Below are positions 27,427 to 55,806 of a stretch of 64,000 nucleotides of DNA, piece after piece. Location of the stretch: contig JBBRDK010000006.1 of assembly GCA_038203955.1 (NCBI GenBank), positions 946 to 64,945 of the forward strand, written 5' to 3'. The stretch is from Thermoanaerobaculia bacterium. Its GTDB lineage: Bacteria > Acidobacteriota > Thermoanaerobaculia > UBA5066 > Gp7-AA6. The notes beneath the pieces are model-generated. The model searched no databases, was not told the DNA's origin, and saw only the letters and a program-made list of their open reading frames with translations. How positions within the stretch are numbered: position 1 is the first letter of the stretch; every line of letters begins with the position of its first letter. The translations under genes were made by a program, and so were the position numbers.

Positions 27427-27430
27427 CGCG

Positions 27431-36237: not shown

Positions 36238-37320
36238 ATGTCTAAAACGACGCGGCTCGGACTCGGCCTTGCTCTCGCGGTTTTCGCTCATCCGGTCGCG
36301 GGGCAGGCTCAGGCCCCCGCTCCGGGCGCAACCGCCCCTCGGACCTCGCCGGCGGCCCCGGAGTATGCGCTCACCGATCGGATCCCCATGCCCGGGGACA
36401 CGGGATGGGACTACCTCACGTTCGACGGACCCTCGCATCGCCTCTACGTCTCGCGCGGCGATCGCGTCCTCGCGATCGACTCCAACAGCAGGAAGGTCGT
36501 CGGGGAGATCGCGCCGACGGCCGGAGTCCACGGGATCGCTCTCGCGCCCGGGCTCGACCGCGCGTTCACGAGCAACGGGCGCTCGTCCAGCGTCACGGTC
36601 TTCTCGCCGTCGAATCTCGCCGTCGTCGGAGAGGTCAAGGGAACGGGCGAAAACCCGGATGCGATCCTCTATGACTCCGCGAGCGGCCGTGTCTTCACCT
36701 TCAACGGCCGGGGCAAGAGCGCGACCGCGATCAACGCGAAGACGCTCGCGATCGAAGGGACCGTTCCCCTCGGTGGCAAGCCGGAAGGGCCGGCAGCGGA
36801 TGGGGCGGGGCGAATCTTCGTCAACATCGAAGACACGAACACGCTGGCCGTCCTCGACTCGCGCACTCTCACGGTGACGGCGCGCTGGCCTCTGGCTCCC
36901 TGCGACGAACCGACCGGGCTCTCGCTCGACGCCGCCCACAAACGTCTCTTCGTCGGCTGCCACAACAAGCTCATGATGGTCGTGGACTCCTCGACCGGGC
37001 GCATCGTGACCTCTCTGCCGATCGGAGAGGGCGTCGACGGAACGGCCTTCGATCCGGGGACGGGACTCGCGTACGCCTCGAACGGGGACGGAACGCTGAC
37101 GGTCGTGCACGAGGATTCCGCGGACTCCTTCCGCGTGGTCCAGAACGTCGCGACTCAGCGCGGCGCCCGGACGCTGGCGCTCGATCCCGCGACCCACAAA
37201 ATCTATCTCGTCACCGCGCAGTTCGGTCCGCCCCCGTCGCCGACGGCGGAGCGCCCGAACCCTCGCCCTCCCATGTTGCCGGGAACGGCCGTCGTGCTGA
37301 TCGTGTCGCCGAAGGGGTAG
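36238..37320 (+). CDS. YncE/YVTN-type seven-bladed beta-propeller protein, secreted
   Basis: Signal peptide MSKTTRLGLGLALAVFAHPVAGQA. Repeated ..G..P.GIA.. / ..VVD..T..V blades (GVHGIALAP, NPDAILYDS, KPEGPAADG, EPTGLSLD, GVDGTAFDP, GARTLALDP). Confidence 0.85.
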   Translation: MSKTTRLGLGLALAVFAHPVAGQAQAPAPGATAPRTSPAAPEYALTDRIPMPGDTGWDYLTFDGPSHRLYVSRGDRVLAIDSNSRKVVGEIAPTAGVHGIALAPGLDRAFTSNGRSSSVTVFSPSNLAVVGEVKGTGENPDAILYDSASGRVFTFNGRGKSATAINAKTLAIEGTVPLGGKPEGPAADGAGRIFVNIEDTNTLAVLDSRTLTVTARWPLAPCDEPTGLSLDAAHKRLFVGCHNKLMMVVDSSTGRIVTSLPIGEGVDGTAFDPGTGLAYASNGDGTLTVVHEDSADSFRVVQNVATQRGARTLALDPATHKIYLVTAQFGPPPSPTAERPNPRPPMLPGTAVVLIVSPKG

Positions 37321-37547
37321 CCGCCGAGGGGCGCCCCTGAAGCCAGCCTGACATTGCGCAACAGCGGCCGACGCAGGACGGCTGGAGCCCGTTAATGCTG
37401 TACCAGCTCGGACACCCCGGCAGCACTCCAACCGCGCGAGCCTCGTCCCGTCACCCGCAGCACCGCGACCCCTTAAACGACATCCTCCCTCGCAAACTAT
37501 TGTAAACGAAGGCTCTAGTTCGTTTCGCGACTCCCTTCTTCGTCCAC

Positions 37548-37598
37548 CTCCGGCCTCTTCGCTGCGACGGCACTCCGGCCTCTTTCGCTGCGACGGCA
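37548..37598 (+). repeat. 25/26-nt tandem direct repeat in the cluster leader region
   Basis: CTCCGGCCTCTTCGCTGCGACGGCA (37548-37572) and CTCCGGCCTCTTTCGCTGCGACGGCA (37573-37598). They are identical apart from one extra T. Confidence 0.85.
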
Positions 37599-37625
37599 CT
37601 TCTGTTATACTTCACCGTCACAGCT

Positions 37626-37727
37626 ATGAACAACAAATGCGCAACGGCGGGTACCTCCCGGGCGAAGGTCCGTCTGTGTGGGGCGCGCTTTGTTCTTTCG
37701 CTGACCAGGTCGACGCCGGCTCTCTGA
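37626..37727 (+). CDS. possible 33-aa upstream ORF (module copy A)
   Basis: [33 protein letters not shown]. Its N-terminus is shared with copies C and D. It has no SD, and third-position GC is only moderate. Confidence 0.25.
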   Translation: MNNKCATAGTSRAKVRLCGARFVLSLTRSTPAL

Positions 37728-37884
37728 GCTGAACGATGAAAAGCAAAGCGCAACGGCGGGTACCTCCCGGGCGAAGTTCTGCCTGCCTGCGCTGCATCTC
37801 TTCTTCTTCGGATACGGGCCGCTGAAGCTCCGACCGACTCATGAAAAACCTAAATGCGACGGCGGGTACCTCCCCGGCGAAGGT
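37626..37884 (+). repeat. three tandem copies (spacing about 105-110 nt) of a conserved 44-nt ATG-initiated module
   Basis: A 37626 ATGAACAACAAATGCGCAACGGCGGGTACCTCCCGGGCGAAGGT. B 37736 ATGAAAAGCAAA-GCGCAACGGCGGGTACCTCCCGGGCGAAGTT. C 37841 ATGAAAAACCTAAATGCGACGGCGGGTACCTCCCCGGCGAAGGT. A fourth copy lies at 55582. Confidence 0.9.
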
Positions 37885-38011
37885 TTGTGCTGGGCGGCGA
37901 TCAAGAGCTTCGTTTTCTGAGCAGCTAGACGCGGCGCACCGCGCCGTTTGTGGCGATCGCCCGACTCCCTGGATTCCCCGGGGGGCGGATGCGGAGTCGT
38001 GCCGCCCATGA
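37841..38011 (+). CDS. possible 56-aa upstream ORF (module copy C), stop overlapping the start of the hydroxylase gene
   Basis: MKNLNATAGTSPAKVCAGRR...ESCRP*. It is below the 60-aa track cut-off. Its TGA (38009-38011) overlaps ATG 38008 as ATGA, the same coupling seen at nine other junctions in this window. Confidence 0.4.
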   Translation: MKNLNATAGTSPAKVCAGRRSRASFSEQLDAAHRAVCGDRPTPWIPRGADAESCRP

Positions 38012-39597
38012 CCCCCAAAGTCTTCCTGCGCCAGAACGCGCTGGCCGAGCCTCTCTTCAACCGGTGGTACGCGTGGCCCTACCTCGTCTCCCCCGTGACG
38101 GCGCCGATGTACGTCGGCAATCTCCACCTGCGCCTGATGGAATCGTTCGTCGCCAATCCGCAAGTCCACATCGCGGCGCTCAAGAACCCGGAGATGTCGG
38201 GAGGCCCCTTCCTGAGCCTCGATGAGAGCAAGGTCCCCGCCGTGGAGCGGTTGATCGACAAGACACGGCGCCAAAGCGCGCCTTTGCTCGAGTTCGCGGA
38301 CGCCGTCCGCGATCTGACACGGATCCTGATGACCCGGGCGGACGGAGCTTCGCTGCATCCGTTCTATGCGGAGGTGCCCGAGCCGCTCAAGGGCTTCGTG
38401 GAGCTCGTCTACGACGTCAACAACCACCCGGGGATCCGCTTCCTCGAGTCGCTCCTGTACTTCAGTCCCTATTACGACGAGGAAGCCCAGAGCCTCGATT
38501 TCTCCGTCGTGAATGGGGACGACCGCGCATTCGTCTTCAGCACCCCCCGGCTGGAGGAAGACGATCGCCTGCATCTGTCGCTGCCCTATCGCGCCGAGGG
38601 CCTCGACCGCGTCTTCCGCATGCGGGAGAAGCCGCAGCCGCTCGGTTTCGCGACCGAGGCGCTTGGATTGTCCGGCCCGGACGACGGGCGATTCAAAGGG
38701 TTGTTCACGGATCAGCCTCCCCGCCTCGCGGAGCCGCGGGATCCGGAAGGGGTCCGCGTCCGCTATTTCGGGCACGCCTGCGTCCTGATCGAGACCCGGG
38801 ACACGACGATTCTTACAGACCCGGTCATCGGTTACGAGCACGGCCGGGGAGCCGCGAGGTTTTCCTTCGCGGACCTGCCCGCCCGCATCGACTACGTCCT
38901 CATCACCCACGCTCACCAGGATCACTGCATGTTGGAGACGCTTCTCCCGCTTCGTCACAAGGTGGGCGAGATCATCGTGCCGCGAAACAGCGGAGGCGGT
39001 CTCGCCGACCCGTCCCTGAAGCTGGCGCTCCAGAGCGCGGGATTTTCCAATGTCAGCGAAATCGACGAGCTCGGCCGCGTCGAGACGGCGGACGGCTCGA
39101 TTACGAGCATTCCGTTTTTCGGGGAACACGGCGACTTGAACATTCGCAGCAAGACGACCTACCTCGTTCGACTTCTCGGCAAATCCTTTCTCTTCTGCGC
39201 AGACTCCAATGCCGTTGAGCCCACGCTGTACGACCACTTGAGCGACATTGTGGGAGACCTCGATGTCGCCTTCATCGGGATGGAATGCGACGGCGCGCCC
39301 ATGAGCTGGCTCTATGGACCCGTGGTGACCGCCCCTCTCACGCGCCGGATGGACCAGTCGAGGCGCCTGGACGCCTCCGACTGCGAGCGCGGAATGGAGC
39401 TCGTGAAGCGTCTTCGCCCGCGGACGGTCTACGTCTACGCCATGGGATCGGAACCATGGCTGACGTATCTGACGTCGATTCATTACACGGAGCAGTCCCG
39501 GCCCATCGTGCAAGCGCGCGCGCTCGTCGCGCGATGCCGGACGCTCGGAATCTGCGCCGAGACGCTCTTCGGGAAGAAAGAGCTGCAGCTCGGATGA
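38008..39597 (+). CDS. CmlA-like non-haem di-iron beta-hydroxylase (metallo-beta-lactamase fold with N-terminal domain)
   Basis: C-terminal MBL fold with ITHAHQDHC (HxHxDH, 38908-38925) and ..FFGEHGD... A ~250-aa N-terminal domain starts ..FLRQNALAEPLFNRWYAWPYLVSP... It is directly coupled (ATGA) to a stand-alone A-T protein, the arrangement known for CmlA/CmlP. The start ATG 38008 was chosen; TTG 37948 (the track start) is an alternative. Confidence 0.75.
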   Translation: MTPKVFLRQNALAEPLFNRWYAWPYLVSPVTAPMYVGNLHLRLMESFVANPQVHIAALKNPEMSGGPFLSLDESKVPAVERLIDKTRRQSAPLLEFADAVRDLTRILMTRADGASLHPFYAEVPEPLKGFVELVYDVNNHPGIRFLESLLYFSPYYDEEAQSLDFSVVNGDDRAFVFSTPRLEEDDRLHLSLPYRAEGLDRVFRMREKPQPLGFATEALGLSGPDDGRFKGLFTDQPPRLAEPRDPEGVRVRYFGHACVLIETRDTTILTDPVIGYEHGRGAARFSFADLPARIDYVLITHAHQDHCMLETLLPLRHKVGEIIVPRNSGGGLADPSLKLALQSAGFSNVSEIDELGRVETADGSITSIPFFGEHGDLNIRSKTTYLVRLLGKSFLFCADSNAVEPTLYDHLSDIVGDLDVAFIGMECDGAPMSWLYGPVVTAPLTRRMDQSRRLDASDCERGMELVKRLRPRTVYVYAMGSEPWLTYLTSIHYTEQSRPIVQARALVARCRTLGICAETLFGKKELQLG

Positions 39598-41561
39598 CAC
39601 CCCAGGCCGCGGGCGGCGACGCGAAGAGCGCGAATCCGGCGTTCTCCCGCCTGACTCCGGAGGAGGCGCGTTTCGTCCAAGCGTGGAATGACACCCGGAG
39701 GGACTATCCCCGTGACGAGACCATTCCGGCGCTCTTCGAGCGGGAAGTTCGGCGCTCGCCCGGCGCGACCGCGCTCGTCTCCGCGGAGGATGGGCGAACG
39801 CTGACCTACGACGCCCTCAATCGGCGGGCCAACCAGCTCGCCCGTCACCTGCGGGACCTCGGCGTCCGGCCGGAGATGCGGGTCGCGATTCACCTCGAGC
39901 GGTCGTTCGACGCGGTCGTCTCGATGCTCGCGATCCTGAAAGCCGGCGGCGCTTACGTTCCGCTCGATCCGCGCCTGCCGTTGAAGCGCGCCTCTCACGT
40001 CCTCGAAGACTCCGGGGCCTCCGTCGTGCTGAGCGTCGAGCCCCTGGCGGATGCGCTGCCCGCGGTCTGGGCCCGCCTCATCTGCCTCGACTCCGACGCG
40101 GGGGCGATTGCGCGGCAGAGCGACGCGAATCCGCCTCGCGCCGGTTCGGCGCTGGGCCTGGCGCACATTCTCTACACGTCGGGCTCGACCGGAGCGCCCA
40201 AGGGCGTGGCGGTGGTCCATCGCGGGGTCGTCCGCCTGGTCCGCGGGACGGACTTCGCCCACCTCGGCCCGGACGAGGTCTTCCTTCAGGCCGCGCCTTT
40301 GTCCTTCGACGCCTCGACGTTCGAGATCTGGGGCGCGCTGTTGAACGGCGGTCGCCTCGTGATCCTCTCTGCGCAGACCCCCGGCCTGGACGACCTCGCG
40401 GAAGCGATCCGGGCGCACGCTGTGACGACTCTCTGGCTCACCGCGGGACTCTTCCATCTCGCGGTCGACCAGCGGCTGTCGGATTTGAAACCTCTGCGCC
40501 AGCTTCTGGCCGGCGGCGATGTTCTCTCCCCGCCGAGAGTCCGGCGCGTGCTGGAAGAGATTCCCGGCTGCGCGCTCGTGAACGGCTACGGCCCCACGGA
40601 GAGCACGACCTTCGCCGCCTGCCACGTCATCCGCTCGCTGCCCGCGAGTGCCGCCACCGTGCCGATCGGGCGGCCCATCGCCAACACACAGATCTATCTC
40701 CTGGATTCCGAGCGCCGGTGGGTCCCGCCCGGTGAGACAGGGGAGCTGTACATCGGCGGTGATGGTCTGGCGCGCGGCTATTGGAACAGCCCGGAGCGGA
40801 CCGCCGAGAGTTTCGTGAAGTCCCCTTTCGACGCGGAAGCCGACGCGCGCCTCTATCGAACGGGGGATCTGGCGCGCCTGCTCCCGGACGGCAATCTCGA
40901 ATTCCTCGGCCGTGCCGACCACCAGATCAAGGTCCAGGGCTTTCGAGTCGAGCTTTCCGAGATCGAATCGGCGCTCGCCCGCCACGCGGCCGTCTCCTGC
41001 AACGTCGTCGACGCCCGGCAGACGTCGGCGGGCGGCCAGAGGCTCGTCGCCTACGTCGTTCTCCGTCCGGGAGAGGAGGCAAGCGACGCCGAGCTCCGCG
41101 CGTTTTTGCAGCAGGAGCTTCCGGAATACATGGTGCCCCCCGCCTTCGTGCGCCTCTCCTCGCTTCCGCTCACGGGCAACGGCAAAGTGGACCGGCGCGC
41201 CCTTCCGGAACCGGTGGGGGCCTCCGCCGGGACCGCGTCTCCCCCGCGCTCCATGACAGAAGAGACGATCGCGCAGGTCTGGCGGTCCGTTCTCGACCTC
41301 GAGGCGATCGATTGCGACGAGAACTTCTTCGACCTCGGAGGCAATTCGCTTCTTCTGATCGACGCTCACGCCAGGCTCCAAAAACTTCTCGCGATTTCCA
41401 TGCCCATCACGACGCTCTTCGAATATCCGACAGTCCGATCCCTCGCACGTTCTCTCGCCAGCGGCCCGGCTCCCGACGAGTCGCTGCAGGCGTTGCGGGA
41501 ACGGGTCCGGCAGAGGCGCCAGGTATGCGATCGCCGTCCCACACCGGAGCCCGCGTCGTGA
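39594..41561 (+). CDS. stand-alone NRPS adenylation-thiolation (A-T) loading protein
   Basis: [39 protein letters not shown] (40173-40205), NGYGPTEST, GELYIGGDGLARGY, YRTGD, VQGFRVELSEIE, NGKVDRRALP, and T-domain LGGNSLL (Ser codon 41346-41348). ATG overlaps the upstream stop (ATGA). Confidence 0.9.
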   Translation: MTPQAAGGDAKSANPAFSRLTPEEARFVQAWNDTRRDYPRDETIPALFEREVRRSPGATALVSAEDGRTLTYDALNRRANQLARHLRDLGVRPEMRVAIHLERSFDAVVSMLAILKAGGAYVPLDPRLPLKRASHVLEDSGASVVLSVEPLADALPAVWARLICLDSDAGAIARQSDANPPRAGSALGLAHILYTSGSTGAPKGVAVVHRGVVRLVRGTDFAHLGPDEVFLQAAPLSFDASTFEIWGALLNGGRLVILSAQTPGLDDLAEAIRAHAVTTLWLTAGLFHLAVDQRLSDLKPLRQLLAGGDVLSPPRVRRVLEEIPGCALVNGYGPTESTTFAACHVIRSLPASAATVPIGRPIANTQIYLLDSERRWVPPGETGELYIGGDGLARGYWNSPERTAESFVKSPFDAEADARLYRTGDLARLLPDGNLEFLGRADHQIKVQGFRVELSEIESALARHAAVSCNVVDARQTSAGGQRLVAYVVLRPGEEASDAELRAFLQQELPEYMVPPAFVRLSSLPLTGNGKVDRRALPEPVGASAGTASPPRSMTEETIAQVWRSVLDLEAIDCDENFFDLGGNSLLLIDAHARLQKLLAISMPITTLFEYPTVRSLARSLASGPAPDESLQALRERVRQRRQVCDRRPTPEPAS

Positions 41562-44500
41562 GCGGTGTGCGAGACGGCAATCTGCGGGACGCGATTGCGA
41601 TTGTGGGGATGGCGGGGCGTTTTCCCGGCGCGGATTCGGTCTCGCACTTATGGGAGAACCTCCAGGCGGGCCGCGAATCGATCTCCGTTCTCACCGACGC
41701 GGAGCTGCTCGAATCCGGGATCGACGCTTCCATGCTCGCCGACCCGCTGTATGTCAAGGCGCGGGGCGTGTTGGAGGACGTCGATCTCTTCGACGCATCC
41801 TTCTTCGGATTCACTCCCAAAGAGGCGGAGTTGACGGATCCGCAGCACCGGCTTTTTTTAGAGACGTGCTGGCGCGCGCTCGAGGACGCGGGCTGCAATC
41901 CGGAGGCCTTCGACGGTGCGATCGGCGTCTTCGGCGGAATGAGCATGAACACGTATCTGCTCGCGGCCCGCGGGAAGGACCCCGGTTTCTGGAAGGATCT
42001 CACCGAGTCCTACCAGATCGGTGAATACCCCTCCGTGCTGGGAAACGACTACAACTTTCTGGCAACGAGGGTCTCCTACAAGCTGAACCTGACGGGACCG
42101 AGCCTGGACGTCCAGACGGGATGCTCGACTTCTCTCGTGGCGGTCTGTCTGGCGTGCCGAGCGCTCCTGCAGCACGATTGCGACGCCGCGCTGGCCGGAG
42201 GGGTCTCGATCACCTTCCCGCAGAAGAGGGGCTACCTCTACCAGGAAGGGGCGATGGGCTCTCCGGACGGCAAGTGCCGTGCGTTCGACGCGGCCGCCGG
42301 AGGGACGGTGTTCGGGTCCGGAGTCGGGATCGTGGTCTTGAAGCGGCTCTCCGATGCCGTCGCGAACAGAGACTCCATTGTCGCGGTGATCCGCGGATTC
42401 GCGTTGAACAACGACGGGGCGTCCAAGGTCGGTTACATGGCGCCGAGCGTCGAAGGCCAGGCCGCAGTGATCGCGACGGCGCAGGCTGTCGCCGATGTGG
42501 ACGCCGAGTCGATTGGATACGTCGAGACGCACGGAACGGGGACGCCGCTCGGGGACCCGATCGAGATCGCCGGGCTGACCCGAGCCTTTCGGTCCGCGAC
42601 GAGCGCGAAGGGATTCTGCGCGATCGGGTCGGTCAAGCCGAACGTCGGCCATCTGGATATCGCTTCCGGGGTCACGGGTCTGATGAAGGCGGCGCTCGCC
42701 GTCCGCACGGGCCGGATTCCGCCGAGCCTCCATTTCGAGCGATCCAATCCCGCCATCGACTTCGCGGACTCGCCGTTCTTCGTGAACACGCAACTCTCCG
42801 AGTGGAGCAACACCGCCCGCCCGCGCCGCGCGGGGGTGAGTGCCTTCGGCGTCGGGGGCACAAACGCCCACGTGGTCCTCGAAGAGGCCCCCGTGCCCGA
42901 ACCTCCCGCCATCCGCTCCTGCGAGCTTCTGGTGCTCTCGGCGAAGACGCCCACCGGGCTCGACGCGGCCGCGGCGAATCTCGCTCGCCATCTGGCCGAG
43001 AAACCGGAAGCGAACCTCGGTAACGTGGCCTTCACGCTGCAGGCGGGCCGCAAGAACTTCGCCCACCGGCGCGCTCTCGTTTGCGCGGACGTCGCGGAGG
43101 CGGTCTCTGATCTGACGCGTCCCTCCGGACGAGCGGTGGCCCGGGGCGGGGACGTTCCCGTCTCCTCGGTCGCGTTCCTGTTTCCCGGCCAGGGATCACA
43201 GTACCCGGGCATGGCCCGGGAGATCTACGAGAGTGAAGAGCGGTTCAGGCAGGAGGTCGACCTCTGCGTCGGCCTGCTTGGGCCGGAGCTCGCGAAGAAC
43301 CTGCGCGATCTTCTGCTCGCGCCCCCGGCAGAGGGCGAGCCTTCGGAGAAGAGCGCGATCCACCGAACGGGGCTGGCCCAGCCCGCCCTTTTCGTCGTCG
43401 AATACGCGCTCGCGCGGCTCTGGGAGAGCTGGGGCGTTCGTCCGTCGGCGATGCTCGGGCACAGCGTCGGCGAATTCGTCGCAGCCACGCTCGCCGGCGT
43501 CTTCTCCCTCGAAGATGCGCTGGCGCTCGTGGCGGCGCGCGGACGGATGATCGAAGAACTCCCCGAGGGATCGATGCTCGCCGTCCGGATGGAAGAAGGG
43601 CAACTGGCCACGGTGGCGCGTCCAGGGCTCTCCCTCGCCGCGGTCAACGCGCCCTCGCTCTGCGTGCTGTCGGGCCCGCCGGACGTCATCGATGGTCTGC
43701 AGAAAGAGCTGGCGGAGCGGGGAATCGCCCAGCGCCGGCTTCAGACATCCCATGCTTTCCATTCCGAAATGATGGATCCCGTCGTCGCCCCCTTCGAGGA
43801 TCTCGTGAACAGTGTCCGTCTCCAGCCGCCGTCGATCCCGATCGTTTCGGGCGTGACGGGAACGTGGGTCCGGGCCGAGGAGGCGACCGACCCCGCGTAC
43901 TGGAGCGCCCATCTGCGAAAACCCGTCCATTTCGCCCGCGGCGTCGCGACGCTCTTGAATGAAAAGGGCCGGGCCCTCCTGGAAGTCGGCCCCGGTCAGA
44001 CTCTTTCCCTGCACGCGAAGCGTCATCCGGCGAAGACCTCCGGACATGTCGTTCTCTCCTCTCTGGGCCATCCGGAGAATCGCGAGTCCGAACGGGCGTG
44101 CCTCCTGCGCGCGGCGGGGCAACTGTGGGTCTCCCGGGTCGCGATCGACTGGCAGGGACTCCAGGCGGGAAGGGATTTGGGCCGCGTCCCTCTTCCGACC
44201 TACCCCTTCGAGAGGAGCCGCCACTGGATCGGGACGCGACTGGAGGACACCACCTCCGGCATCGGTACCCACGGCGGCCCCCAAATCGCGTCTCTGCCAA
44301 CCCGGGCCGAGGGGGCCGTCGCCTTTCCAACGAAAGCGGAGTTGCCAATGATGAACGACGCCAACCCCGCCTCTGCGGCTTTTCGCCATCCCCGGCTTCT
44401 CTCGAGAGTCCAGAAAGTGTTCGGCGATCTCGCCGGCCTGCCGCCCGGAGAAGTCCCGCCTTCCGCGACTTTTCTCGAGGCCGGTTTCGACTCGCTCTTC

Positions 44501-47500
44501 CTGACGCAGGCGAGCCAGCACCTCCAGAAGGAGTTCGGAATTCGCATCGCCTTTCGTCAACTCCTGGGAGATCAGTCGACACCCGACGCCCTTGCCAGCT
44601 TCCTCGACGCGCAGCTGCCCGCCGAAATCGCGCTCCTGACCCCGACTTCCGTGGCGGCGGTAGCCGAACCCCCGGCGAATTCCCCGCGGCCGGCGGCCGG
44701 CGCGGCGCCCGCAGCCGGATCTTCGGGCGTTCTCGAGCGTATTTTGACGGAGCAGCTGCGCGTCATGTCTCGCCAGCTTGAGATGCTTCGCGGCGACATC
44801 CCGGAGCTCGCGCCGCCGGAGGAGACGGCCTCCGTCCCGACGACGTCGCTTCCGAATCCAGAGGGGCCCGTACCGGCGCAGTTTGAGTCTGCCGGCGAAA
44901 AGCCAGCCTTCAAGCCCTTCGGTCCCTACAAGCCGATCGAGAGAGGCGCCGGAGACGCTCTCTCGGAGACGGCCCGGCGGTATCTGACGGGTTTTATCGA
45001 GCGTTACTCGCGTAAGACGGCGAAGTCGAAGCGGCTCGCCGAGGAGCACCGCTCCCATTTCGCCGACCCGCGGGTCGTGGCGGGGTTCCGCCGCGACTGG
45101 AAGGAAATCGTCTACCCGATCGTGGCGACGGGCTCTTCGGGCTCGCGCATCCGGGACGTGGACGGGAACGAATACGTCGACCTCCTGATGGGATTCGGCC
45201 TGAACCTCTTCGGACATTCGCCGTCGTTCGTGACCGAGGCCGTCGCCGAACAGCTTCGTAAGGGCGTCGAGATCGGGCCGCAGTCCCCTCTCGCGGGGGA
45301 GGTGGCGCGTCTCATCAGCGAGTTCACTGGAATGGAGCGGGTGACCTTCTGCAATACGGGCTCCGAAGCCGTGATGGCCGCGATCCGCCTGGCCCGTACC
45401 GTGACGGGCCGCGACCCGATCGCGCTCTTTTCCGGCGCATACCACGGCACATTCGACGAGGTCCTCGTGAGAGGCGTGCGCTCCGGAGGTGTCCACAAGT
45501 CCTTTCCCATCGCACCGGGCATCCCCGCCGCGAAGGTCGAGAACGTCCTCGTGCTCGACTACGGAACCGAGGAATCGCTGCGGATCCTCGAATCCCGGAT
45601 TGGCCAGCTGGCGGCCATTCTGGTCGAGCCGGTTCAGAGCCGGCACCCCGATCTCCAGCCGCGGGAGTTTCTCCGGAAACTGCGGGAGATGACCGAGAAA
45701 TCCGGAACGGCGCTCATCTTCGATGAAGTGATCACGGGCTTTCGAGTCCATCCGGGAGGCGCTCAGGCGTGGTTCGGAATCCAGGCCGATCTCGCGACCT
45801 ACGGGAAGGTGCTCGGCGGCGGTCTGCCTCTCGGGGTCGTCGCCGGAAAAGGCGCTTTCATGGACGCTTTGGACGGCGGCATCTGGCAGTTCGGAGACGA
45901 CTCGTTCCCCGAGACCGGCGTGACCTTCTTTGCGGGGACCTTCGTGAGACATCCACTCGCGATGGCCGCCGCGCTGGCGGTGCTCCATCGGCTGAAGGCT
46001 GCCGGGCCCTCCCTCCAGGAAGGGTTGAACGACAAAGCCGCGTGGTTGGCGGGAGAGTTGAACGCCGTCTTCGAAAGAAATCACGTCCCGAGCCGCGTCG
46101 AGCACTTCGGCTCGATTCTCTATTTCGGGTTTTCGAACGATCACCGACTCGCGAGCCTGCTCTTCTATCATCTTCGCGAAAAAGGCGTGCACATCTGGGA
46201 GGGTTTCCCCTGCTTCGTTACAGAAGCGCACAGCCAGGAAGACCTCGAGTTCATCGTGCGCTCCTTTGACGCAAGCGCCACTGAGATGAGGGCGGGAGGA
46301 CTTCTGCCGTCTTCCGACGACGGGAGAGGGCGTGGCGATGCGGTCCCACGACCCATGGAAGTCGTTGCCGCGACCGCGCCGGAGAGCCCCGATTCCGCCG
46401 CCTCTTCGTTGACCGAATCCCAGAAGGAGGTCTGGCTCGCGTGCCAGATGGGATCCGAAGCTTCCTGTGCGTTCAACGAGGGCATCTCGCTCCGGTTTCG
46501 CGGAACTCTCGAGGTTTCGGCCCTGCGCGAGGCGCTCCAGGATCTCGTTGACCGGCATGACGCCCTGCGCACGAAGTTCGACGCGGATGGGGAACTGCAG
46601 CGCGTGGTAGCGGCGGCGAGCGTCCCGCTGACGATCACGGATCTATCGGAATGGAAGCGCGGGGACGCGCAAGTGCGGAGCAGGCAGATCGTGCTCGAGG
46701 AGGCACGGACTCCCTTCGATCTGACGCGCGGACCGCTCCTCCGCGGCCGACTCGTACGCCTCGCGACTGACCTTCACGATCTCGTGCTGACGGCCCACCA
46801 TCTCGCCTCCGATGGCTGGTCGACGAACGTGCTTCTCAGGGAGCTCGCCTCCCTCTATTCCGCACGGCGAGAGTCAATCGCAAACGACCTGCCCGCCGCG
46901 TCGCGCTTTCGCGATTTTGCCGCGCGCGAGGCGGCGCGGCGCAGAGGTCCGAAGGCCTCCGCGACCGAGGCGTACTGGCTGGGCGAGTTTGCGTCCCCGG
47001 CGCCCGTGTTGGATCTGCCGACGGACCGGCCGCGTCCGGCTGTCAAGACGTATGCGGGAGCGACGATCCGACGGACGGTTTCCGGCTCGCTCGCAAAGGC
47101 GGTGCGTCAGGCCGGTGCCCGAGAAGGATGTACGCTTTTTGCGACTCTGTTTGCGGTGTTTACGGCCCTTCTCCACCGCCTGACGGGGCAAGAAGATCTG
47201 GTGGTCGGGATCCCCGCCGCGGGCCAGGCCGGAGACGGCTGCGAGGACGTCGTCGGACACTGCGTCAACTTCCTGCCGATTCGCTCGCGCGCGCCGAAGG
47301 ATGTCGAGTTCCGAACACACTTGCGGTCCATCCGGAAGACGATTCTGGACGCCTTCGAGCACCAGGACTATACGTACGGCAGTCTCATCCAGGCGCTGGC
47401 GCTTCCGCGCGATCCGAGCCGTCTGCCGCTGATCGAGGCGCAATTCAACCTCGAGCGGGTTGGAGCCGGCTCGGATTGGAGCGGCCTTGCCGTGGACGTG

Positions 47501-50500
47501 GACACTAACCCGAAGTCTTTCGTCAACGACGACGTCTTCTTGAATGTCGTCGAGACGGCGGATGGCCTGGTTCTCGACTGCGACTTCAATACCGATCTCT
47601 TCGACGCCGGGACGGTCGAGCGGTGGCTGGGATACTTCGAGAAGCTCCTCGAGGGAATCGTCGAGGACGCCTCCCGGTCGCTTTCGGCCCTGCCCCTGTG
47701 CGGCGAGGCGGAGCGTAAACAGGTGCTGGTCGAATGGAATCGCACCCGGCGGCGGCTTTCGAAGGCCGGGTGCGCGCATCAGCTCTTCGAAGTGCAGGCG
47801 CTTCGGGCGCCGGAGGCGATCGCTCTCTCCTTCCGGGACGAGCGGGTGACCTACGCGGAATTGAACGTCCGCGCGAACCGGCTGGCGAATCACCTCGCGA
47901 GCTTCGGAGTCGCCCGTGGCGTCGTCGTGGGCCTGTGCCTGGAGCGCTCTCCCGACCTCGTGGTCGCGATTCTGGCGATCCTGAAGGCCGGAGGAGCCTA
48001 CGTCCCGCTCGATCCCTCGCACCCATCGGAGCGCCGCGCCGCGATCCTCGAGGACGTGGGCGCGCCGTTCCTCCTCATAGACGAAGACGAAGACGTTCCC
48101 GTTCCGGCGGCGACCCGGGTCATCCGGCTGCGCGCGGAACGCGAAAAAATCTCGGAGGCGAGCGCCGAGACGCCAGGGGCCACGCCGGCCGCGGAGGACC
48201 TGGCGTACGTGATCTACACATCCGGGTCGACGGGAAAACCGAAGGGCGTCGCCATAGCGCACCGGTCCCTCGTGAACCTGCTCGAAGCCATGCGAGAGAG
48301 TCCCGGGATCGGTCGCACCGATACCCTCCTCGCAGTCACGACTGTGTCCTTCGACATCGCGGCGCTCGAGTTGCTCCTGCCGCTGACGGCGGGGGCGCGA
48401 ACCGCTCTCGCTCCGCCGGAAGCCTCTTCCGACGGCAGCCGGCTGTCCGAAGAGCTGTTTCGCTCCCAAGCCACGATCCTTCAGGCGACGCCCGCCACGT
48501 GGCGGCTCTTGATCGACTCGGGGTGGAAGGGTCAGTCGAATCTGAAGTTGCTCTGCGGCGGAGAACCTCTGTCTCGCGACCTGGCGGACGCCCTCCTCGC
48601 CCGTGGCGGCTCCCTCTGGAACATGTATGGTCCCACGGAGACGACGATCTGGTCCGCGGCTGGACGGGTCGCCGCCGGCGAGGGCGCGCCCCGCATCGGA
48701 CCGCCGATCGCGAACACCCGACTCTATGTCCTCGACGAAGAGCTTCGGCCCGTGCCCATCGGGGTCCGGGGTGAGGTCTTCATCGGAGGAGAGGGTCTCG
48801 CGAGGGGCTACTGGAAGCTGCCGGAGCTTACCGAAAGAAACTTCCTTCCCGATCCCTTCCGGAGCGAACGGGGAGCTCGGCTCTACCGGACCGGCGACCT
48901 TGGCCGTTTCCGGTCCGATGGGACGATTGAGCTCTCCGGCCGGCGAGACCGGCAAGTCAAAGTCCGGGGATACCGCATCGAGCTTTCCGAGGTCGAAGCC
49001 GCGCTCTCGAGCCATGCGGCCGTGCGGGAAGCCGCCGTGACGGTTCGCGAAGACTCGCCTGGCGACAGGAGACTCGTTGCGTACATTGTCCCCGAGGCAG
49101 CCGATCTGCGCGACGTCGAGGCCGAGTGGCAGGCGGAGATGAGCGCCCAGTGGCGCGCGCAATACGGCTCGGCGATTCGGGAGCGCGATCCCGGGAGCGA
49201 TGCGCATCCGGATCCGTCCCTGAGCCTCTACGGCTGGACTGGCCTCGGCAACGTCGCCGAAGAGCTCGACGCATGGCTCGCTCCGATCGCCGAGGAGATC
49301 CTCGCCTGGAGTCCCCGGCGCGTCCTCGAGATCGGATGCGGCACCGGGCTGCTGCTCGAAAGGCTGGCTCCCGCATGCCGGTTTTACTCGGGCACGGATC
49401 TGTCGGAGGAGGCGCTCGACAGCCTACGCGCCCGCCTGGCATTGTCGGACCTCCCGGCGAAACGAGTCGGGCTCCGGCGCCGGATGGCGGACGATTTCGA
49501 GGGAATCGAGCCCGGGTCGTTCGACACCGTGATCGTCAACTCGGTCGTGGAGTACCTGCCGAGCGTCGAGTCTCTGTTACGGGTCGTCGAAGGCGCGATC
49601 CGGACCGTCGGGAAGGGCGGGCGCGTTTTCCTGGGGGATGTCCCGAGCCTGCCGATGTGGGAAACCTTTCACGCGGCGGCCCAGCTCGCGCACGCTTCCG
49701 ACGAGCTTCCCGTCAAAGAGCTCTCGGAGCGGGTGCGCCACGCGGTCTCGCAGGGGAGCCGTCTGCTGGTCGATCCCGACTTTTTCCGGGCGCTCAAACA
49801 CAGCGTTCCGGGGATTGACCGTGTCGAAGTGCGGCTCTCGCGGGGCCGATTTTCGGACGAAGCGTCGCGACTCCACGCCGACGCCTATTACGACGTAATC
49901 CTTCACGTCGGTGAGCCGACTCCGGACAAAGGCCAGGTCGGGCGAGAGCGCGTGACGCTCGATTGGGAAGAAGAACCCCTGGCCCTGTCCACCCTCGAAA
50001 CTCTCTTCACGGCGGAGACGGACTCGGTCCTCGTGCTGGGAGTCCCGATTCTCCGTCTGGTGGCGCAAGCGAAGACGCTCGAGCTGCTCGAGACCGGAGA
50101 GGGAGGCGTCGCGGAGACGGTCGGCGACCTTCGGGAGCGCCTGCGAGACGTGTCGGGCGCCGACCTCGCACCAATCGGGGATCTCGCCGAGAGTCGAGGC
50201 TACTCGATGGACAGGGTCTGGTCCGGCTCGGGACGTTCCGGCCGTTGCGATCTGCTTTTCCGGCGCGCTCTTGCGAAGACCGGCGTGAGTCTGTCTCCCG
50301 GACTGTCGAAAGAGGTCCCGGGGCCGAGGCCGTGGCATGAGTACGCCAACAGTCCCGCGCGCTCGGCGCTCGCGCGCCGTCTCGTGCCGGAGCTCCGGTC
50401 GTTCGTCAAGCAGAAGTTGCCCGCCTTCATGGTGCCGGCCGCGATCGAGATCCTCGAAGTGCTGCCCCTCACCGCAAACGGCAAGGTGGACCATCGTGCG

Positions 50501-50854
50501 CTGCCGCGGCCGCAGCGTCTCCACGCGCTGGCGGAGGAGACTTTTCGGGCCCCTCGGACCGAACGCGAGAGAACCCTCGCGGCGATCTGGGCCGAAGTCC
50601 TGCATCTCGATCGGGTCGGAATTTGCGACGACGTCTTCGATCTCGGCGGCGATTCGCTCTTGATCTTCCAGATCTCGACACGCGCGAACCGGGCGGGCTT
50701 CGAAATCGCCCCGAGAGATCTCTTTGCGCACCGCACCATTCTGGAGCTCACACAAGCCCTCGCGATGAAAGAGAGCGAGCCGTCGGCGCCCGAGCGGACT
50801 CCCCTGGTGGCGATGTCTCGCGACGCGCATCGAGTGAGGCGGGCGAGCTTGTGA
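41558..50854 (+). CDS. hybrid PKS-NRPS megasynthase: KS-AT-ACP-aminotransferase-C-A(embedded MT)-T
   Basis: The GTG start overlaps the upstream stop (GTGA); the track start 40781 is an over-extension. KS: [13 protein letters not shown] (41591), active Cys in [10 protein letters not shown] (42122-24), [14 protein letters not shown]: FPGQGSQ, GHSVGE (Ser 43463-65), HAFH (43751-62). ACP: GFDSL (Ser 44492-94). Class-III PLP aminotransferase: [14 protein letters not shown] (Lys 45806-08). C: HHLASDGW (46796-46816). A: [11 protein letters not shown] (48215-47), [20 protein letters not shown]: VLEIGCGTG (49322-48), lying between ..RLVAYIVP and LPAFMVP. T: GGDSL (Ser 50654-56). No KR, DH or ER domain. 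Confidence 0.95.
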
Positions 50855-50894
50855 TTTACGAGAAGAAGGCCGGGACTCCGGCATAGCGATCCGA

Positions 50895-53800
50895 ATGGGA
50901 AGACCTGCTCGGTCCCTGGCGCCTCCCGCCGCGGAGACATCACCGGTTGCTGCCGCCGCGACAGAGGACGTCTTCGTTTTTCCCGCGTCATTCGCCCAGC
51001 AGCGTTTCTGGTTCGTCGATCAATACAACCCCGGGACCACCGCGTACTGCCTTCCGATCCTGCTGCGCGTCGCCGGGAACCTCAATCCGAACGTCCTCGA
51101 GCGGGTCTTGAACGAGATTGTCCGGCGTCACGAGATCCTCAGGACGACGTTTTCCCTGTCGCAGTGGGAGCTCGTGCAGGTGATCTCCCCGTCGGCTCGC
51201 CTGACGCTGCCTCTCGTCGACCTGTCGTACATTCCCGAGCCGGAGCGCGAAGCGCGCGCCTTCGATCAGGCGCGGGAAGAGAGCCGGAGAGCCTTCGACC
51301 TGCGTCAGGGACCGCTCTTCCGGGCTCATCTCTGGCGGCTGTCCGATCGCGATCATCTGTTCCTGCTCGACATGCATCACATCGTTGCGGACGGGTGGTC
51401 CTTCTCCGTCCTGCTCCACGAGCTCGCCGTTCTCTACGATGCTTTTGAGAAGGGCCGCGACTCGCCGCTGCCGGACTTATCCATCCAATACGCGGATTTC
51501 GCTCAGTGGCAACGCGATCGGACGCAGGAGGAGGGACAGGATGGCGATCTCTCCTTCTGGAAAGCGGAACTTGCGGGAGCGCCTCCGATGCTCGATTTGC
51601 GGTCGGACCACCCGCGGCCATCGCGACAGACCTTTTCCGGAGCCTACGAGACCGAGCTCCTGCCCGCCGGTCTGACCCACAGGATCAAAGCTTTGTCCCG
51701 ACGAGAGGGCTTCACGCCTTTCATGACCCTGCTGGCCGCCTTCTTCGCGGTCCTCTACCGTTACACGGGCCAGACCGACATGGTTGTGGGCTCGCCCATC
51801 GCAAATCGCTCCCGCTTCGAGCTCGAGCCTCTCATCGGCCTCTTCATGAACACGCTCGTCCTCCGCGCCGACCTTTCCGGAAACCCGACCTTCCGTGAGC
51901 TCCTCGCTCGAGTCGGGCGCGTCTGTGTGGGCGCCTATTCGCACCAGGACATGCCGTTCGAGAAGCTCGTCGAAGAGCTCAAGCCGCCGAGAGATCCGAG
52001 TCGCAATCCCGTTTTTCAATCGATGTTCGTGTATCAGAAAGCCTTCATTCAGCCCTTCGCGGCAGGAGACCTCCGATTCACACCGATCAAGGCGGACCGT
52101 GGCGGCGCATTGACGGATCTCTCCCTGTTCGTCATCGACCGGCAAGACGGTTTCACGACCGGCATCGAGCACAACACCGACCTGTTCGATGCCTCCTCGA
52201 TCCGACGCATGCTCGGTCATTTCCGCACTCTGCTCCAGGCGGTCGTAGAGAATCCCGAGCTCCGGATCGATGCGATCCCGTTGTTGACGCCTGTCGAGCG
52301 CCGCCAGTTGCTCATCGAGTGGAACGAGACCGAATCCGAATTTCCGAAGGACCAGTGCCTGCACCAGCTCTTCGAGGCACAGGTCGAGAAGACTCCCGAC
52401 GCGGTTGCGCTTCTGTTCGAAGGACACGGATTGACCTACCGCGAATTAAACGCCCGCTCCAATCGTCTGGCCCGGTATCTCGCCCGGATGGGCGTGGGGC
52501 CGGAAACGCGAGCCGGCGTCTGCTTGCCGCGGTCCCCCGAGATGGTCATCGGACTGCTGGCGGTTCTGAAGGCGGGCGGCGCCTATATCCCGCTCGACCC
52601 CGCCTACCCGCGCGAACGATTGGCGTTCCTGCTCGAAGACGCAGCCCCTTCCGTCGTTGTGTCGCAGGGCACGATCGCCGGAGCGATCCCCTTTGCCGGA
52701 AGCGTCGTCTCTCTGGACTCGATCGGCCGGCAACTCGACCGAGAATGCGAGGAAAACCTGGCAAACGGCGTCACGCCCGATGACCTCGCCTATCTGATCT
52801 ACACCTCGGGGTCGACAGGCAGGCCGAAGGCCGCCATGATTCCGCATCGAGGCGTCGTCAACTACCTGACGTGGTGCGTCCCCGCCTACTCGGTCGCATC
52901 CGGCCGGGGGGCGCCGGTGCAGTCCCCCCTCTCCTTCGATCTGACGGTGACCTCGCTTTTTGCGCCGCTCGTCTGTGGCGGGACGGTGCATCTCCTCGCC
53001 GAAAAGCCGGCAGGGGCGGCGCTCGCCGAGCTGTTTGACGAACCCGGAGACTGGAGTCTCGTCAAGACGACACCGACCGAGCTCGAGCTCTTGAGCCGGC
53101 AGGTCATGGCCGGGAACGCTTCCAGGCGAACGCGCGCCTTCGTGGTGGGAGGCGAGAGCCTGGCGGGCGAGATGCTCGGCTTCTGGCGCGGCGCGGCTCC
53201 GGACACGAAAGTCTTCAACGAGTACGGTCCGACGGAAACCGTCGTCGGATGCTGCGTCTACGAGGTCGGCGCGGCACCCCACGCCGGGCCGGTTCCGATC
53301 GGCCGCCCGATCGCGAACACGCGGCTCTACATTCTCGGGCCGGACGGGCAGCCGGTTCCGATCGGCGTCGTCGGAGAGCTCTGCATCGCCGGAGCCGGGG
53401 TGGCGCGAGGATACTGGAACCGGCCGGATCTGACGGCCGAACGGTTCGTTCCCGACCCGTTCGGGAAGCCCGGCTCCCGGATGTACCGCTCAGGCGATTT
53501 CGCGCGATACCGGTCCGACGGGAACATCGAATACGTGGGACGCCGCGACTCGCAGGTGAAGCTGCGGGGCTATCGCATCGAGCTCGGAGAGATCGAGGCG
53601 GCGCTCGAAGGACATCCAGCGGTGCGCCGGTCCGCGGTGCTCGCGCGGGAAGATGCGCCAGGCGAGAAGAGGCTCGTGGCCTATGTGGAGGCGGGACCGG
53701 CGAGCGCGGTGACCGAGACGCAGCTTCGCGCCTTCCTGAAGGAAAGGTTGCCGGCGCACATGGTTCCGTCGGCGTTCCTGATTCTCGAGAGCCTTCCTCA

Positions 53801-54968
53801 GAGCCCGAACGGAAAGATCGATCGACGAGCCTTGCCCGCACCCGCTCCGACCTCCCGGGAAAAGGAGGCGGGCCGCATCGCTCCGTCCGACCCCGTGGAA
53901 GTCCGGCTGGCGGCGATCTGGGAAGACGTCCTCGGCGTGCGCGGCATCGGCGTCCGCGACGACTACTTCGACCTGGGGGGACACTCGCTGCTGGCTATCA
54001 AACTCTTCTCGCGGATCAGAAACGTCTTTGGACGGCATCTGCCGCTCGCGACGATCTTTCAGGCGCCGACAATCGAACGGCTTGCCGGGATCATCCGGCA
54101 GGAGGGTTGGAAGCCGTCCTGGTTCTCGCTCGTGCCGATCCAGCCGCTCGGCGCGAAGACGCCTCTGTACCTGATTCACGCAGGCGGGGGCAACGTGCTC
54201 TTTTATATGGATCTCGTTCGCCACCTGCGCCGCGACCAGCCCGTGTACGGGTTACAGGCTAGGGACCTGACGGAAAAGGGGAGGCGCGCAGAACGTCTTG
54301 AAGAGATGGCCGCGTTTTACGTCAAGGAGATCCGAGAGTTTCAGCCGGAAGGGCCGTACTACCTCGGGGGGGCTTCCTATGGGGGCCTGATCGCATTCGA
54401 GATGGCGCAACAGCTTCTTCGGCAGGGACAGGAGGTCGGCATGGTCGCGCTGCTGGACACCTGGGGGCCCGATTATCCAAGCCGCCATCCCGACGAACAC
54501 TCGCTCCGAGTCCGTCTGATCCGGCTGTCGGAACGAGTGTCCCTCCACGTCGGCAACATTATTGCGACGGAGGGGAACCGCGCGAAAGCCGGTTACGTCA
54601 CGTGGAAGACCAGCGTCCTGCTGGACACGATGCGCAAGGAGATGCTGCGCCGCGCCGAAAGGGTTCGGAAACTCCTGGGGCTCCCTCGAGCCTTCCGCGT
54701 GCTGGAGGCTCGCATCGGAGAGGCCAAATCCCGTTATGTTCCGCAGGTCTATGCCGGCAGGTTGACGCTCTTTCGGGCGACCACGCAGCCGGCGGGATAC
54801 GGCTACGACGGGGATCTCGGATGGACACGCGTCGCGCGCGGCGGCGTGGAAGTGCACGAGATCCCCGGTCACCACGGCTCCATCGTCCACGAGCCGCGAG
54901 TCCCGATTCTGGCAGAGCGGTTGACGCGCTGCCTGGACGAGCTCGCTGCGAATAAATCCTCGGCTTAA
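50895..54968 (+). CDS. NRPS termination module C-A-T-TE
   Basis: C: [19 protein letters not shown] (51375-95). A: [52 protein letters not shown]: GGHSLL. TE: ..[11 protein letters not shown].., GGASYGG (Ser 54375-77). Confidence 0.95.
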
Positions 54969-55066
54969 CCGTTGGCGGGCTCTCGGTGGAAGGGAGAGCG
55001 ATAAAGACGTGGCGGCGACGTGGGCGTGGAGGCCGGCGCGCTGATATCCTCCTCGCCCGCTAACCT

Positions 55067-55143
55067 GGGCCGTTAGCTCAGTCGGTTAGAGCATCGGCCT
55101 TTTAAGCCGGTGGTCCTGGGTTCGAGTCCCAGACGGCCCACCA
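55067..55143 (+). tRNA. tRNA-Lys (anticodon UUU), CCA encoded
   Basis: Folded by hand. Acceptor GGGCCGT/ACGGCCC is perfect. U8 A9. D arm GCTC-AGTCGGTTA-GAGC. Anticodon arm TCGGC-CTTTTAA-GCCGG. 5-nt variable loop. T arm CTGGG-TTCGAGT-CCCAG. Discriminator A plus CCA. Confidence 0.95.
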
Positions 55144-55581
55144 ACCTGGACCTCACGAATCCGCACCGGAATCCAGTAAGCACTCTTCTCTCCTTGCCCC
55201 GGAGAATTCTCAATTCGATTTCAGCGCCGGACCGATGGCGCTCTCTCCCGATGGACGCATCCGGCCGTGATTTGCCGGGCGAGAGAAGTTTCCGTTCGCC
55301 GCTCCCGGTAGTCCCCAGCTCCTGCGCCTCAAACCTAAGTGGGTCGAGACTCTCCCGTCAGGGGTATCTCGATTCCCCGAGTCTCTTTCTGCGGCTCTTC
55401 GAGATGCCGGACCTCTGGAAGACGGCCTCCCGCTCGGTTAGCTGGACGGGGCGTCTGCCGCGGAAACGGTTGCAGAATAAGACCTTCTCGCTCCGGGCTC
55501 GGCGCGTCGAACAAACCTCCCGAGTTCTTTCCCTCCTGCGGATCTTTCCCGGCACGAGTTTTGCTCGGTCGACGTAAACCC

Positions 55582-55806
55582 ATGAACAATCAAGACGCAA
55601 CGCCGGGTACCTCCCGAGCGAAGGTCTGCGTCGAGCGCCTTGCCGGGGGTTTCGATCGGTCCCTGCGGGACCTGATCGCACACTGCCGCTCGGCTGAGGC
55701 GGGAGGCTACAGGCCATCGGACGTTCCGACGGCCCGCTTGAGCCCGAAGGACCTCGACAAACTCGTCGCGGAAGTCAAAACCTCCGATCCGCGCCCTCGC
55801 CAGTGA
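55582..55806 (+). CDS. 74-aa ORF: module-copy-D N-terminus fused to a tail that resembles the end of an NRPS epimerization domain; stop overlaps the NRPS start
   Basis: MNNQDATPGTSRAKVCVERLAGGFDRSLRDLIAHCRSAEAGGYRPSDVPTARLSPKDLDKLVAEVKTSDPRPRQ*. Fairly high third-position GC. TGA 55804-06 overlaps GTG 55803 (GTGA). The first 44 nt match the modules at 37626/37736/37841. Confidence 0.5.
   Translation: MNNQDATPGTSRAKVCVERLAGGFDRSLRDLIAHCRSAEAGGYRPSDVPTARLSPKDLDKLVAEVKTSDPRPRQ

Follow-up and report, generated by a model that had tools for sequence, protein, structure and literature searches.

In microcystin synthetase, McyE carries ketosynthase (KS), acyltransferase (AT), acyl carrier protein (ACP), and aminotransferase (AMT) domains followed by nonribosomal peptide synthetase (NRPS) domains in a single polypeptide. 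TioS, which contains interrupted adenylation (A) domains, methylates cysteine. In the biotin pathway, BioF condenses an amino acid to an alpha-amino ketone, 8-amino-7-oxononanoate, which the class III aminotransferase BioA converts to the vicinal diamine 7,8-diaminononanoate. Orphan clusters that combine NRPS and polyketide synthase (PKS) genes are common in metagenome-assembled genomes (MAGs), and to our knowledge few metabolites of Acidobacteriota have been confirmed by experiment. The AMT domain of MycA aminates an ACP-bound beta-ketothioester to the beta-aminothioester with glutamine as donor (PMC3870968), and FrsH, a relative of CmlA, hydroxylates leucine tethered to a thiolation (T) domain and also accepts isoleucine (PMC7794379). 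Here, we describe four genes at 38008-54968 of a 64,000-nucleotide stretch from a Thermoanaerobaculia bacterium (GenBank assembly GCA_038203955.1, contig JBBRDK010000006.1, positions 946 to 64,945; "the window," with a G+C content of ~68%). All four lie on the plus strand and encode, by Pfam profile search, a hydroxylase, an A-T loader, a PKS-NRPS hybrid, and a protein with condensation (C), A, T, and thioesterase (TE) domains. This cluster is a real, intact, and uncharacterized hybrid assembly line in which every enzyme type is already known and the combination has, as far as our searches showed, no characterized product. The cluster proteins match their Pfam profiles at E values of 1e-15 to 1e-106, well outside anything expected by chance, and the genes are as follows.

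38008..39597, plus strand: CmlA-family non-heme diiron beta-hydroxylase, 529 aa (CmlA_N, 3e-85, plus a metallo-beta-lactamase fold)
39594..41561, plus strand: free-standing A-T loader, 655 aa (AMP-binding, 5.5e-91, plus PP-binding)
41558..50854, plus strand: hybrid PKS-NRPS, KS-AT-ACP-AMT-C-A(MT)-T, where MT is a methyltransferase, 3098 aa (architecture shared by homologues)
50895..54968, plus strand: terminal NRPS, C-A-T-TE, 1357 aa (Condensation, 6e-106; AMP-binding; PP-binding; Thioesterase, 3.5e-25)

All four open reading frames (ORFs) are unbroken, and every catalytic motif inspected in the four proteins is intact. The hydroxylase and loader genes meet in an ATGA overlap (39594-39597) and the loader and hybrid genes in a GTGA overlap (41558-41561), with 40 nt (50855-50894) separating the hybrid from the C-A-T-TE gene. 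In public annotation, the hybrid (P0001, 3109 aa) opens at an ATG at 41525, 11 codons before the GTG at 41558, which would lengthen the overlap to 37 nt; the 4-nt overlap is kept in homologous loci. DNA of the cluster recurs in soil and sediment metagenomes, with roughly half of the sampled words, or more, present in runs of five studies, indicating that the sequence is real. A scan of 37000-56000 for promoters and terminators returned sites no more frequently than in shuffled sequence.

The first domain of the hybrid is the KS, which starts at aa 12, and Pfam detects no loading domain of its own. The domains of this protein are arranged as follows.

41591..42739, plus strand: KS domain (ketoacyl-synt, 7e-72), with the catalytic Cys in TGCSTSL and His residues in HGTGT (aa 325) and GHL (aa 364)
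43175..44032, plus strand: AT domain of malonyl-CoA type (Acyl_transf_1, 1e-48), with GHSVG (aa 634) and HAFH (aa 732)
44405..44602, plus strand: ACP, approximate limits (two Pfam PP-binding stretches), with the phosphopantetheine Ser979 in GFDSL
45008..46321, plus strand: in-line class III aminotransferase, the AMT (Aminotran_3, 8e-52), with DEVITGFR and the pyridoxal phosphate (PLP) lysine in YGKVLGGG
46406..47725, plus strand: condensation domain C1 (Condensation, 3e-86), with HHLASDG at aa 1747
47786..50560, plus strand: interrupted A domain with a Gly code (AMP-binding, 4e-89), into which the methyltransferase is inserted
~49190-50407, plus strand: inserted methyltransferase, with the S-adenosylmethionine (SAM) motif VLEIGCGTG
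50573..50761, plus strand: T domain of module 2 (PP-binding), with GGDSL

The linker between KS and AT is also matched by Pfam, which finds no ketoreductase, dehydratase, or enoylreductase domain in the hybrid; the spacing between AT and ACP is only ~125 aa. The AMT domain aligns over its full length with the MycA amine-transferase structure (6KFM; 493 bits, E = 8e-147), with the PLP lysine aligned. An earlier reading of this DNA (here, the sequence-only reading) had laid out the domain order by eye, and Pfam recovers exactly that order at the same positions, along with the chain of 4-nt overlaps through the first three genes and the 40-nt gap before the fourth. That reading had also drawn a parallel to the MycA type of in-line transamination and had taken the HAFH motif as a sign of malonyl-CoA use. 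The alignment to 6KFM, the conserved PLP lysine, and the C domain behind the AMT bear out the former at the level of sequence, and the presence of HAFH together with GHSVG bears out the latter. The residues on which it had hung the chemistry, the PLP lysine and the KS Cys/His/His triad, are both present.

In the second module, the methyltransferase insert sits between motifs A8 and A9, with A8 before it and A9 (LPAFMVP) and A10 (NGKVDH) after it. Over its whole length, the resulting A-MT-A unit can be aligned with the TioS A-M-A structure (5WMM; 416 bits). The M2 motif of the insert is divergent. Because of the homology to TioS, and because glycine offers only its nitrogen as a nucleophile, this module should yield sarcosine (Sar) through N-methylation of glycine. 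The terminal module comprises a C domain at aa 29-473 (HHIVADG), an A domain at aa 493-974, a T domain at aa 1004-1065 (GGHSL), and a TE domain at aa 1090-1343 (GASYG and GHHGS).

Substrate codes of the A domains were extracted by alignment to a GrsA-PheA sequence, a procedure that reproduced the reference code DAWTIAAICK. The loader consists of an A domain at approximately aa 48-531 and a T domain at aa 558-619 (GGNSL), with no C domain. It has the hallmarks of an amino acid A domain, including Asp235, Lys517, and a 444-bit match to NCBIfam TIGR01733, as the sequence-only reading had supposed. Its code, DAFWLGGTFK, is of the Val type and agrees at 9 of 10 positions with DAFWIGGTFK, which we take to be the canonical Val code of the Stachelhaus table; the same loader code is found in nine related loci, and the predicted substrate is accordingly of the Val type. 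The codes of modules 2 and 3 are DILQLGMIWK, pointing to Gly, and DLTKVGEVGK, pointing to Asn. The first three positions that had been read by hand in each domain (D-A-F, D-I-L, and D-L-T) are thus correct. Of the specificities suggested with them, Gly stands for module 2, refined to a predicted N-methyl-Gly, and the choice between Asp and Asn left for module 3 falls to Asn, with Asp discarded: the module is predicted to add Asn.

The hydroxylase has a CmlA_N domain (PF18456, 3e-85) at aa 7-237 and a metallo-beta-lactamase fold at aa 250-426. Among structures in the PDB, it matches the diiron monooxygenase 8A90 (489 bits) and CmlA (4JO0, 409 bits), and its metal-ligand motifs HAHQDH, GEH, ADS, and MECDG all align with those of 8A90; our searches of the literature on the origin of the 8A90 entry found nothing. 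A 4-nt overlap joins the hydroxylase and loader genes in this cluster and also in the related loci L001-L003 and L087. Among the loci surveyed, 10 distinct ones contain a CmlA-like gene, each of them with a Val-type loader; they include loci of a Planctomycetaceae MAG and a delta-proteobacterial MAG. None of 15 loci whose loader codes are Thr, Pro, or other contains it. These counts ignore shared ancestry and are suggestive only. The gene is also kept whatever the third module encodes, be it Asn, Gln, Pro-like, or DAMHVGGVAK. The gene overlap, the co-occurrence with Val-type loaders, and the retention across changes in the third module together suggest that the hydroxylase serves the Val loader.

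We next consider how the KS is primed, drawing on a survey of 85 fetched genome loci. In P0012, an A-T unit with the identical nine-residue code is fused in cis to KS-AT-ACP-AMT-C-A-T, and P0034 (Labilithrix luteola) and P0073 (Lysobacter ciconiae) likewise open with A-T-KS. Where the KS is at least 52% identical to the one described here, an A domain commonly lies directly upstream, with Val-, Thr-, Pro-, Ile-like, or DLKN-type codes. Loci with a KS of ~40% identity are cyanobacterial, are of the type primed by fatty acyl groups, and lack such an upstream A domain. The Acidobacteriaceae loci, represented by L070, are an exception: their KS is 55-58% identical, yet no A-T loader precedes it. 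Since the hybrid has no loading domain, the cis fusion exists in P0012, and KS domains similar to this one are commonly found behind A domains, the predicted priming of the KS by an aminoacyl-T loader is supported.

These features lead us to propose the following pathway. The loader would adenylate L-valine, or a close aliphatic analogue, and tether it to its own T domain, where the translationally coupled CmlA-type enzyme would hydroxylate C-beta to give 3-hydroxyvalyl-S-T. The AT would load malonyl onto the ACP, and the KS would accept the hydroxyvalyl unit and condense it with malonyl-ACP, yielding 4-amino-5-hydroxy-5-methyl-3-oxohexanoyl-S-ACP with no reduction. The PLP domain would then transaminate the 3-keto group to a vicinal 3,4-diamine, probably with glutamine as the donor, following MycA. 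C1 would join the diamino acyl unit to glycine, N-methylated by the inserted methyltransferase to sarcosine, and the last module would add L-Asn. Release by the TE could occur through hydrolysis or through lactamization onto either free amine. For the predicted linear product, 3,4-diamino-5-hydroxy-5-methylhexanoyl-Sar-Asn (C14H27N5O6), the calculated [M+H]+ is 362.203; the corresponding values are 344.193 for a cyclic form and 346.209 for the linear form lacking the hydroxyl group. On balance, we favor the proposal as a whole, a functional-looking four-gene, trans-loaded NRPS-PKS-NRPS line that makes a diamino acid peptide, and judge it reasonably probable.

Homologues of the hybrid place this pathway within a larger family. 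The top of the 120 best matches stands at identities of 88%, 76%, and 67-70%, with Acidobacteriota MAGs as sources wherever these are named. About 30 further proteins of ~3,100 aa in this set share the whole architecture at 47-53% identity, with named sources in Acidobacteriota that include Pyrinomonadaceae and Aridibacter. In a scan of one genome per species, which turned up no identical genome, the best matches to the AMT (80-88%) come from MAGs of Thermoanaerobaculia or "uncultured Acidobacteriota," all of them uncultured. Every close locus has the hydroxylase, loader, and hybrid in the same order with the same overlaps. The loader code is constant among these loci (DAFW[LI]GGTF), and module 2 is coded for Gly in all but L009, a partial read with DIIQLAG. 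The constant part of the family is the predicted combination of hydroxylase, Val loader, PKS/AMT module, and Sar module.

The third residue varies. This cluster and L003 share an Asn code, L086 has a Gln code (DAWQFGLIDK), DAMHVGGVAK occurs in five loci, and the code of L002 is Pro-like. DNA identity to L086, the nearest relative, is 87% over 40321-52640 and then falls to 65%, with the code changing from Asn to Gln. Along the last module, protein identity is 0.88 for the C domain and drops to 0.24-0.56 for the A domain. Given this loss of identity past 52640 and the change in code, the third residue is apparently diversified by A-domain replacement, with the L086 breakpoint at ~52640, just after the C domain. 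In P0008 and P0010, a TE is fused directly behind the predicted sarcosine module.

Other loci with homologues of the hybrid show further arrangements. In L002 (GCA_039933215.1), the hybrid is flanked by additional A-T-TE and (C)-A-T-TE genes, placing several release domains in one locus. Two distant homologues, in L004 (a Pyrinomonadaceae MAG) and L070 (the cultured Paracidobacterium acidisoli 4G-K13), sit in polysaccharide loci with genes for NeuB, CMP-sugar, epimerase, Wzm/Wzt, Poly_export, O-antigen ligase, and GT2 proteins. After the hybrid in these two loci come C-(A)-T-TE, Acyl_transf_3, and phosphopantetheinyl transferase (PPTase) genes, and L004 has a Cupin_8 protein in place of the CmlA-type hydroxylase. 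This setting hints that some members of the hybrid family decorate a glycan.

Several points weigh against the proposed pathway. With a free 4-amino group beside a 3-keto or 3-amino thioester, the chain could be derailed by cyclization into a tetramate or gamma-lactam, and we see nothing that would protect the nitrogen, be it a starter C domain or an acyltransferase. The loader code is also compatible with Ile or Leu, and hydroxylation of valine by the CmlA-type family has only been hypothesized, and that elsewhere (PMC12181424). Neighboring genes on the contig carry frameshifts, making undetected assembly errors possible, although the four ORFs themselves are intact. Finally, no PPTase, transporter, or regulator adjoins the cluster within the window, unlike in relatives, which have a PPTase nearby; none of the genes that flank the cluster in relatives was found in the window.

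Different roles for the hydroxylase and loader were also weighed. The hydroxylase could target the last module, converting Asn-S-T to beta-hydroxy-Asn, or another carrier, leaving the starter unhydroxylated and the first unit as 3,4-diamino-5-methylhexanoate. Beta-hydroxy-Asn is a common NRPS building block, and CmlA-family enzymes work in trans, their targets not fixed by gene order. We nevertheless consider this distinctly unlikely, given the translational coupling of the hydroxylase gene with that of the loader, its occurrence only with Val-type loaders, and its persistence where the third module carries a Gln, Pro-like, or DAMHVGGVAK code. A more radical alternative, that the A-T/hydroxylase pair makes a free hydroxy amino acid or serves another pathway while the KS is primed otherwise, for example by an acyl-CoA, strikes us as very improbable. 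Side pathways of the NovH/NovI type are known elsewhere, and in relatives from Acidobacteriaceae, L070 among them, the KS is not preceded by an A-T loader, but the cluster has no type II or free thioesterase to release an amino acid, the hybrid opens directly with its KS, and the cis fusion of a Val-coded A-T to a KS exists in P0012. As for novelty, literature on Acidobacteria NRPS-PKS clusters, vicinal diamines, hydroxyvaline and CmlA, and diamino acids formed by AMT domains yielded no characterized cluster with the same gene set, in searches whose coverage left out most subscription journals. Carenaemin (Collimonas) was examined as a match and set aside; its cluster has a KS/AMT start and otherwise different genes. 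A description under a name we did not retrieve, whether in a subscription journal or as a MIBiG entry, has a small chance of existing on account of that coverage. Against it stand the full-text searches, the lack of a product name on any of the 120 best hybrid homologues, the close ones all being MAG proteins, and the uncultured MAG origin of every genome match with at least 80% AMT identity.

The downstream limit of the cluster bears on a further alternative, for which three features are relevant.

55067..55143, plus strand: tRNA-Lys(UUU), 98 nt past the TE gene, at the downstream end of the cluster (ARAGORN; Rfam, 75.5 bits)
55630-55776, plus strand: remnant (~50 codons) of a linker of the type that precedes C domains in longer NRPSs, in another frame (NCBIfam TIGR01720 fragment; tblastx frame analysis)
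55803-59006, plus strand: C-A(Ala)-T gene, with code DLFNNALTYK and C motif QHLVLDR (Pfam, code, and motif)

The last of these might be a working fifth component that adds alanine, for instance by acylating a free amine or extending the chain. In favor of this, the gene follows the TE gene at a distance of 835 nt and in the same orientation, its A (Lys517) and T (GGHSL) motifs are intact, and L003, the closest cluster by third-module code, has a 46%-identical Ala-coded module just upstream of its hydroxylase gene. We nonetheless regard this role as unlikely. The tRNA-Lys stands between the gene and the operon, the C motif reads QHLVLDR rather than HHxxxDG, and the 50 linker codons that precede it are out of frame with nothing NRPS-like further upstream, giving the gene a 5'-truncated look. 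L001 and L087 have no counterpart, and all that lies in this position in L086, downstream of the cluster, is a different C-domain gene with a truncated N terminus. A related strain in metagenome run X4 matches the TE gene and hydroxylase region at ~96-99% and also covers the tRNA, leaving the C-A-T segment and the genes beyond uncovered. We did not extend the cluster to this gene, on which the sequence-only reading, otherwise supported at every point that could be checked, had made no comment; lying beyond the tRNA, with its QHLVLDR motif and out-of-frame linker, it is probably a 5'-truncated NRPS relic outside the pathway. Metagenome contigs of four runs all break at the tRNA-Lys, which may mark an island or recombination boundary. 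A candidate clean 4-kb deletion joining 55144 to 59153 in run X4 was dropped, resting as it does on 28 nt of GC-rich, low-complexity sequence.

The genes upstream of the four-gene line are unrelated to it or housekeeping. They comprise hemH, hemB, and genes for a hemL-like aminotransferase, aconitase, an Lhr helicase, a chromate transporter, and an M1 peptidase, together with genes for a KefC-type exchanger, a DUF481 protein, a uracil-DNA glycosylase (UDG), a beta-propeller protein, and an ACT protein. The genes of the heme pathway are loosely grouped upstream of the cluster, over 14858-28816. Annotated features on both sides are as follows.

14858-15877, minus strand: ferrochelatase, heme pathway
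26323-27426: 5-aminolevulinate (ALA) dehydratase, heme pathway
27371-28816: class III aminotransferase, probably hemL, a second Aminotran_3 gene unrelated to the in-line AMT
59002-59916: DUF4198 gene, with no ATG, GTG, or TTG upstream of the signal-peptide region and its first start codon at 59242
60385 to ~61680, minus strand: purA, downstream of the cluster
~61850-63375: hutH (NCBIfam, 681 bits against a cutoff of 539)
63445 onward: hutU, after hutH

A 1019-aa "aromatic lyase" ORF at 60316-63375 was considered as a Tyr/Phe aminomutase that would supply a beta-amino acid starter and was rejected; it corresponds to hutH plus, in its N-terminal half, an antisense shadow of purA. The DUF481 gene (32380-33212, minus strand) is split over two overlapping ORFs covering model positions 1-118 and 121-210, a frameshift that is either real or an assembly error. 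A ~75-nt element at 34299-34372 reaches word depths of 500-2770, compared to 3-28 in its flanks, in four soil metagenomes, where it is present on 22-32 contigs per run; the direct repeat TCCCGATTCCCG lies on its flanks. The element is neither a tRNA nor a match to any Rfam family, shows no stable folding (z = +1.4), and does not occur in the 85 fetched loci; candidate explanations are a dispersed short repeat and an adapter-like artifact.

Taken more broadly, the results lead us to a tentative generalization, which we hold with less confidence than the pathway itself. Amino acid-primed KS-AT-ACP-AMT modules may be a widespread, uncharacterized way of making vicinal (3,4-) diamino acids on a thiotemplate, with occurrences in genomes of Acidobacteriota, Verrucomicrobiota, Planctomycetaceae, delta-proteobacteria, and cyanobacteria. 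In the present clade, an invariant 3,4-diamino-5-hydroxy-5-methylhexanoyl-sarcosine head might then act as the functional warhead, with the third residue tuned by A-domain swapping. Such a warhead could be, for example, an amino-statine-like protease inhibitor or a metal-binding unit. The pathway itself, if the prediction is right, would add a new thiotemplate building block, a beta,gamma-diamino acid formed by amination of an alpha-amino ketone on a carrier protein, and would mean that a concrete small product, its masses already predicted, can be named for soil Acidobacteriota. The family also offers a natural experiment on permissive recombination sites, with 87% DNA identity up to the last-module breakpoint and a different A domain beyond it. 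Since no individual enzyme is new, the surprise is moderate rather than high; no characterized member was found in the wider multiphylum set of amino acid-primed AMT modules either.

Compared to described systems, the closest counterpart of the hybrid is MycA/ItuA of Bacillus (mycosubtilin and iturin), with which it shares a reduction-free KS-AT-ACP followed by an in-line class III aminotransferase and a C domain. MycA/ItuA are primed by a fatty acid through their own acyl-ligase/ACP region, whereas here a separate amino acid A-T protein takes that place and the KS comes first. The predicted product accordingly differs in having a second, vicinal amine and no lipid, and the downstream A domain bears a predicted N-methyltransferase insert. 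McyE, compared by description only, resembles the hybrid in architecture, but what it elongates is a long polyketide chain (Adda) and no aminoacyl starter. As in the interrupted A domains (A-M-A) of TioS, the methyltransferase of the second module sits between A8 and A9, and the module aligns with 5WMM throughout; it differs in its Gly code, which gives the predicted sarcosine.

The hydroxylase has the same CmlA_N plus metallo-beta-lactamase diiron architecture as the enzymes of the CmlA/CmlP (chloramphenicol) and FrsH/FrsA (FR900359) pairs, a family that works on T-tethered amino acids and in which FrsH takes the aliphatic residues Leu and Ile. Relative to these pairs, the predicted substrate here is valine, which would require hydroxylation of a tertiary C-H bond, and the predicted acceptor of the hydroxylated residue is a KS instead of a C or R domain. 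The overall predicted transformation parallels BioF/BioA, a chemical analogy only: those enzymes are free-standing, act on free substrates, and are not thiotemplated, and we claim no homology beyond the aminotransferase class. The locus described here would carry out the equivalent steps, condensation of an amino acid to an alpha-amino ketone and its amination to a vicinal diamine, on a carrier protein.

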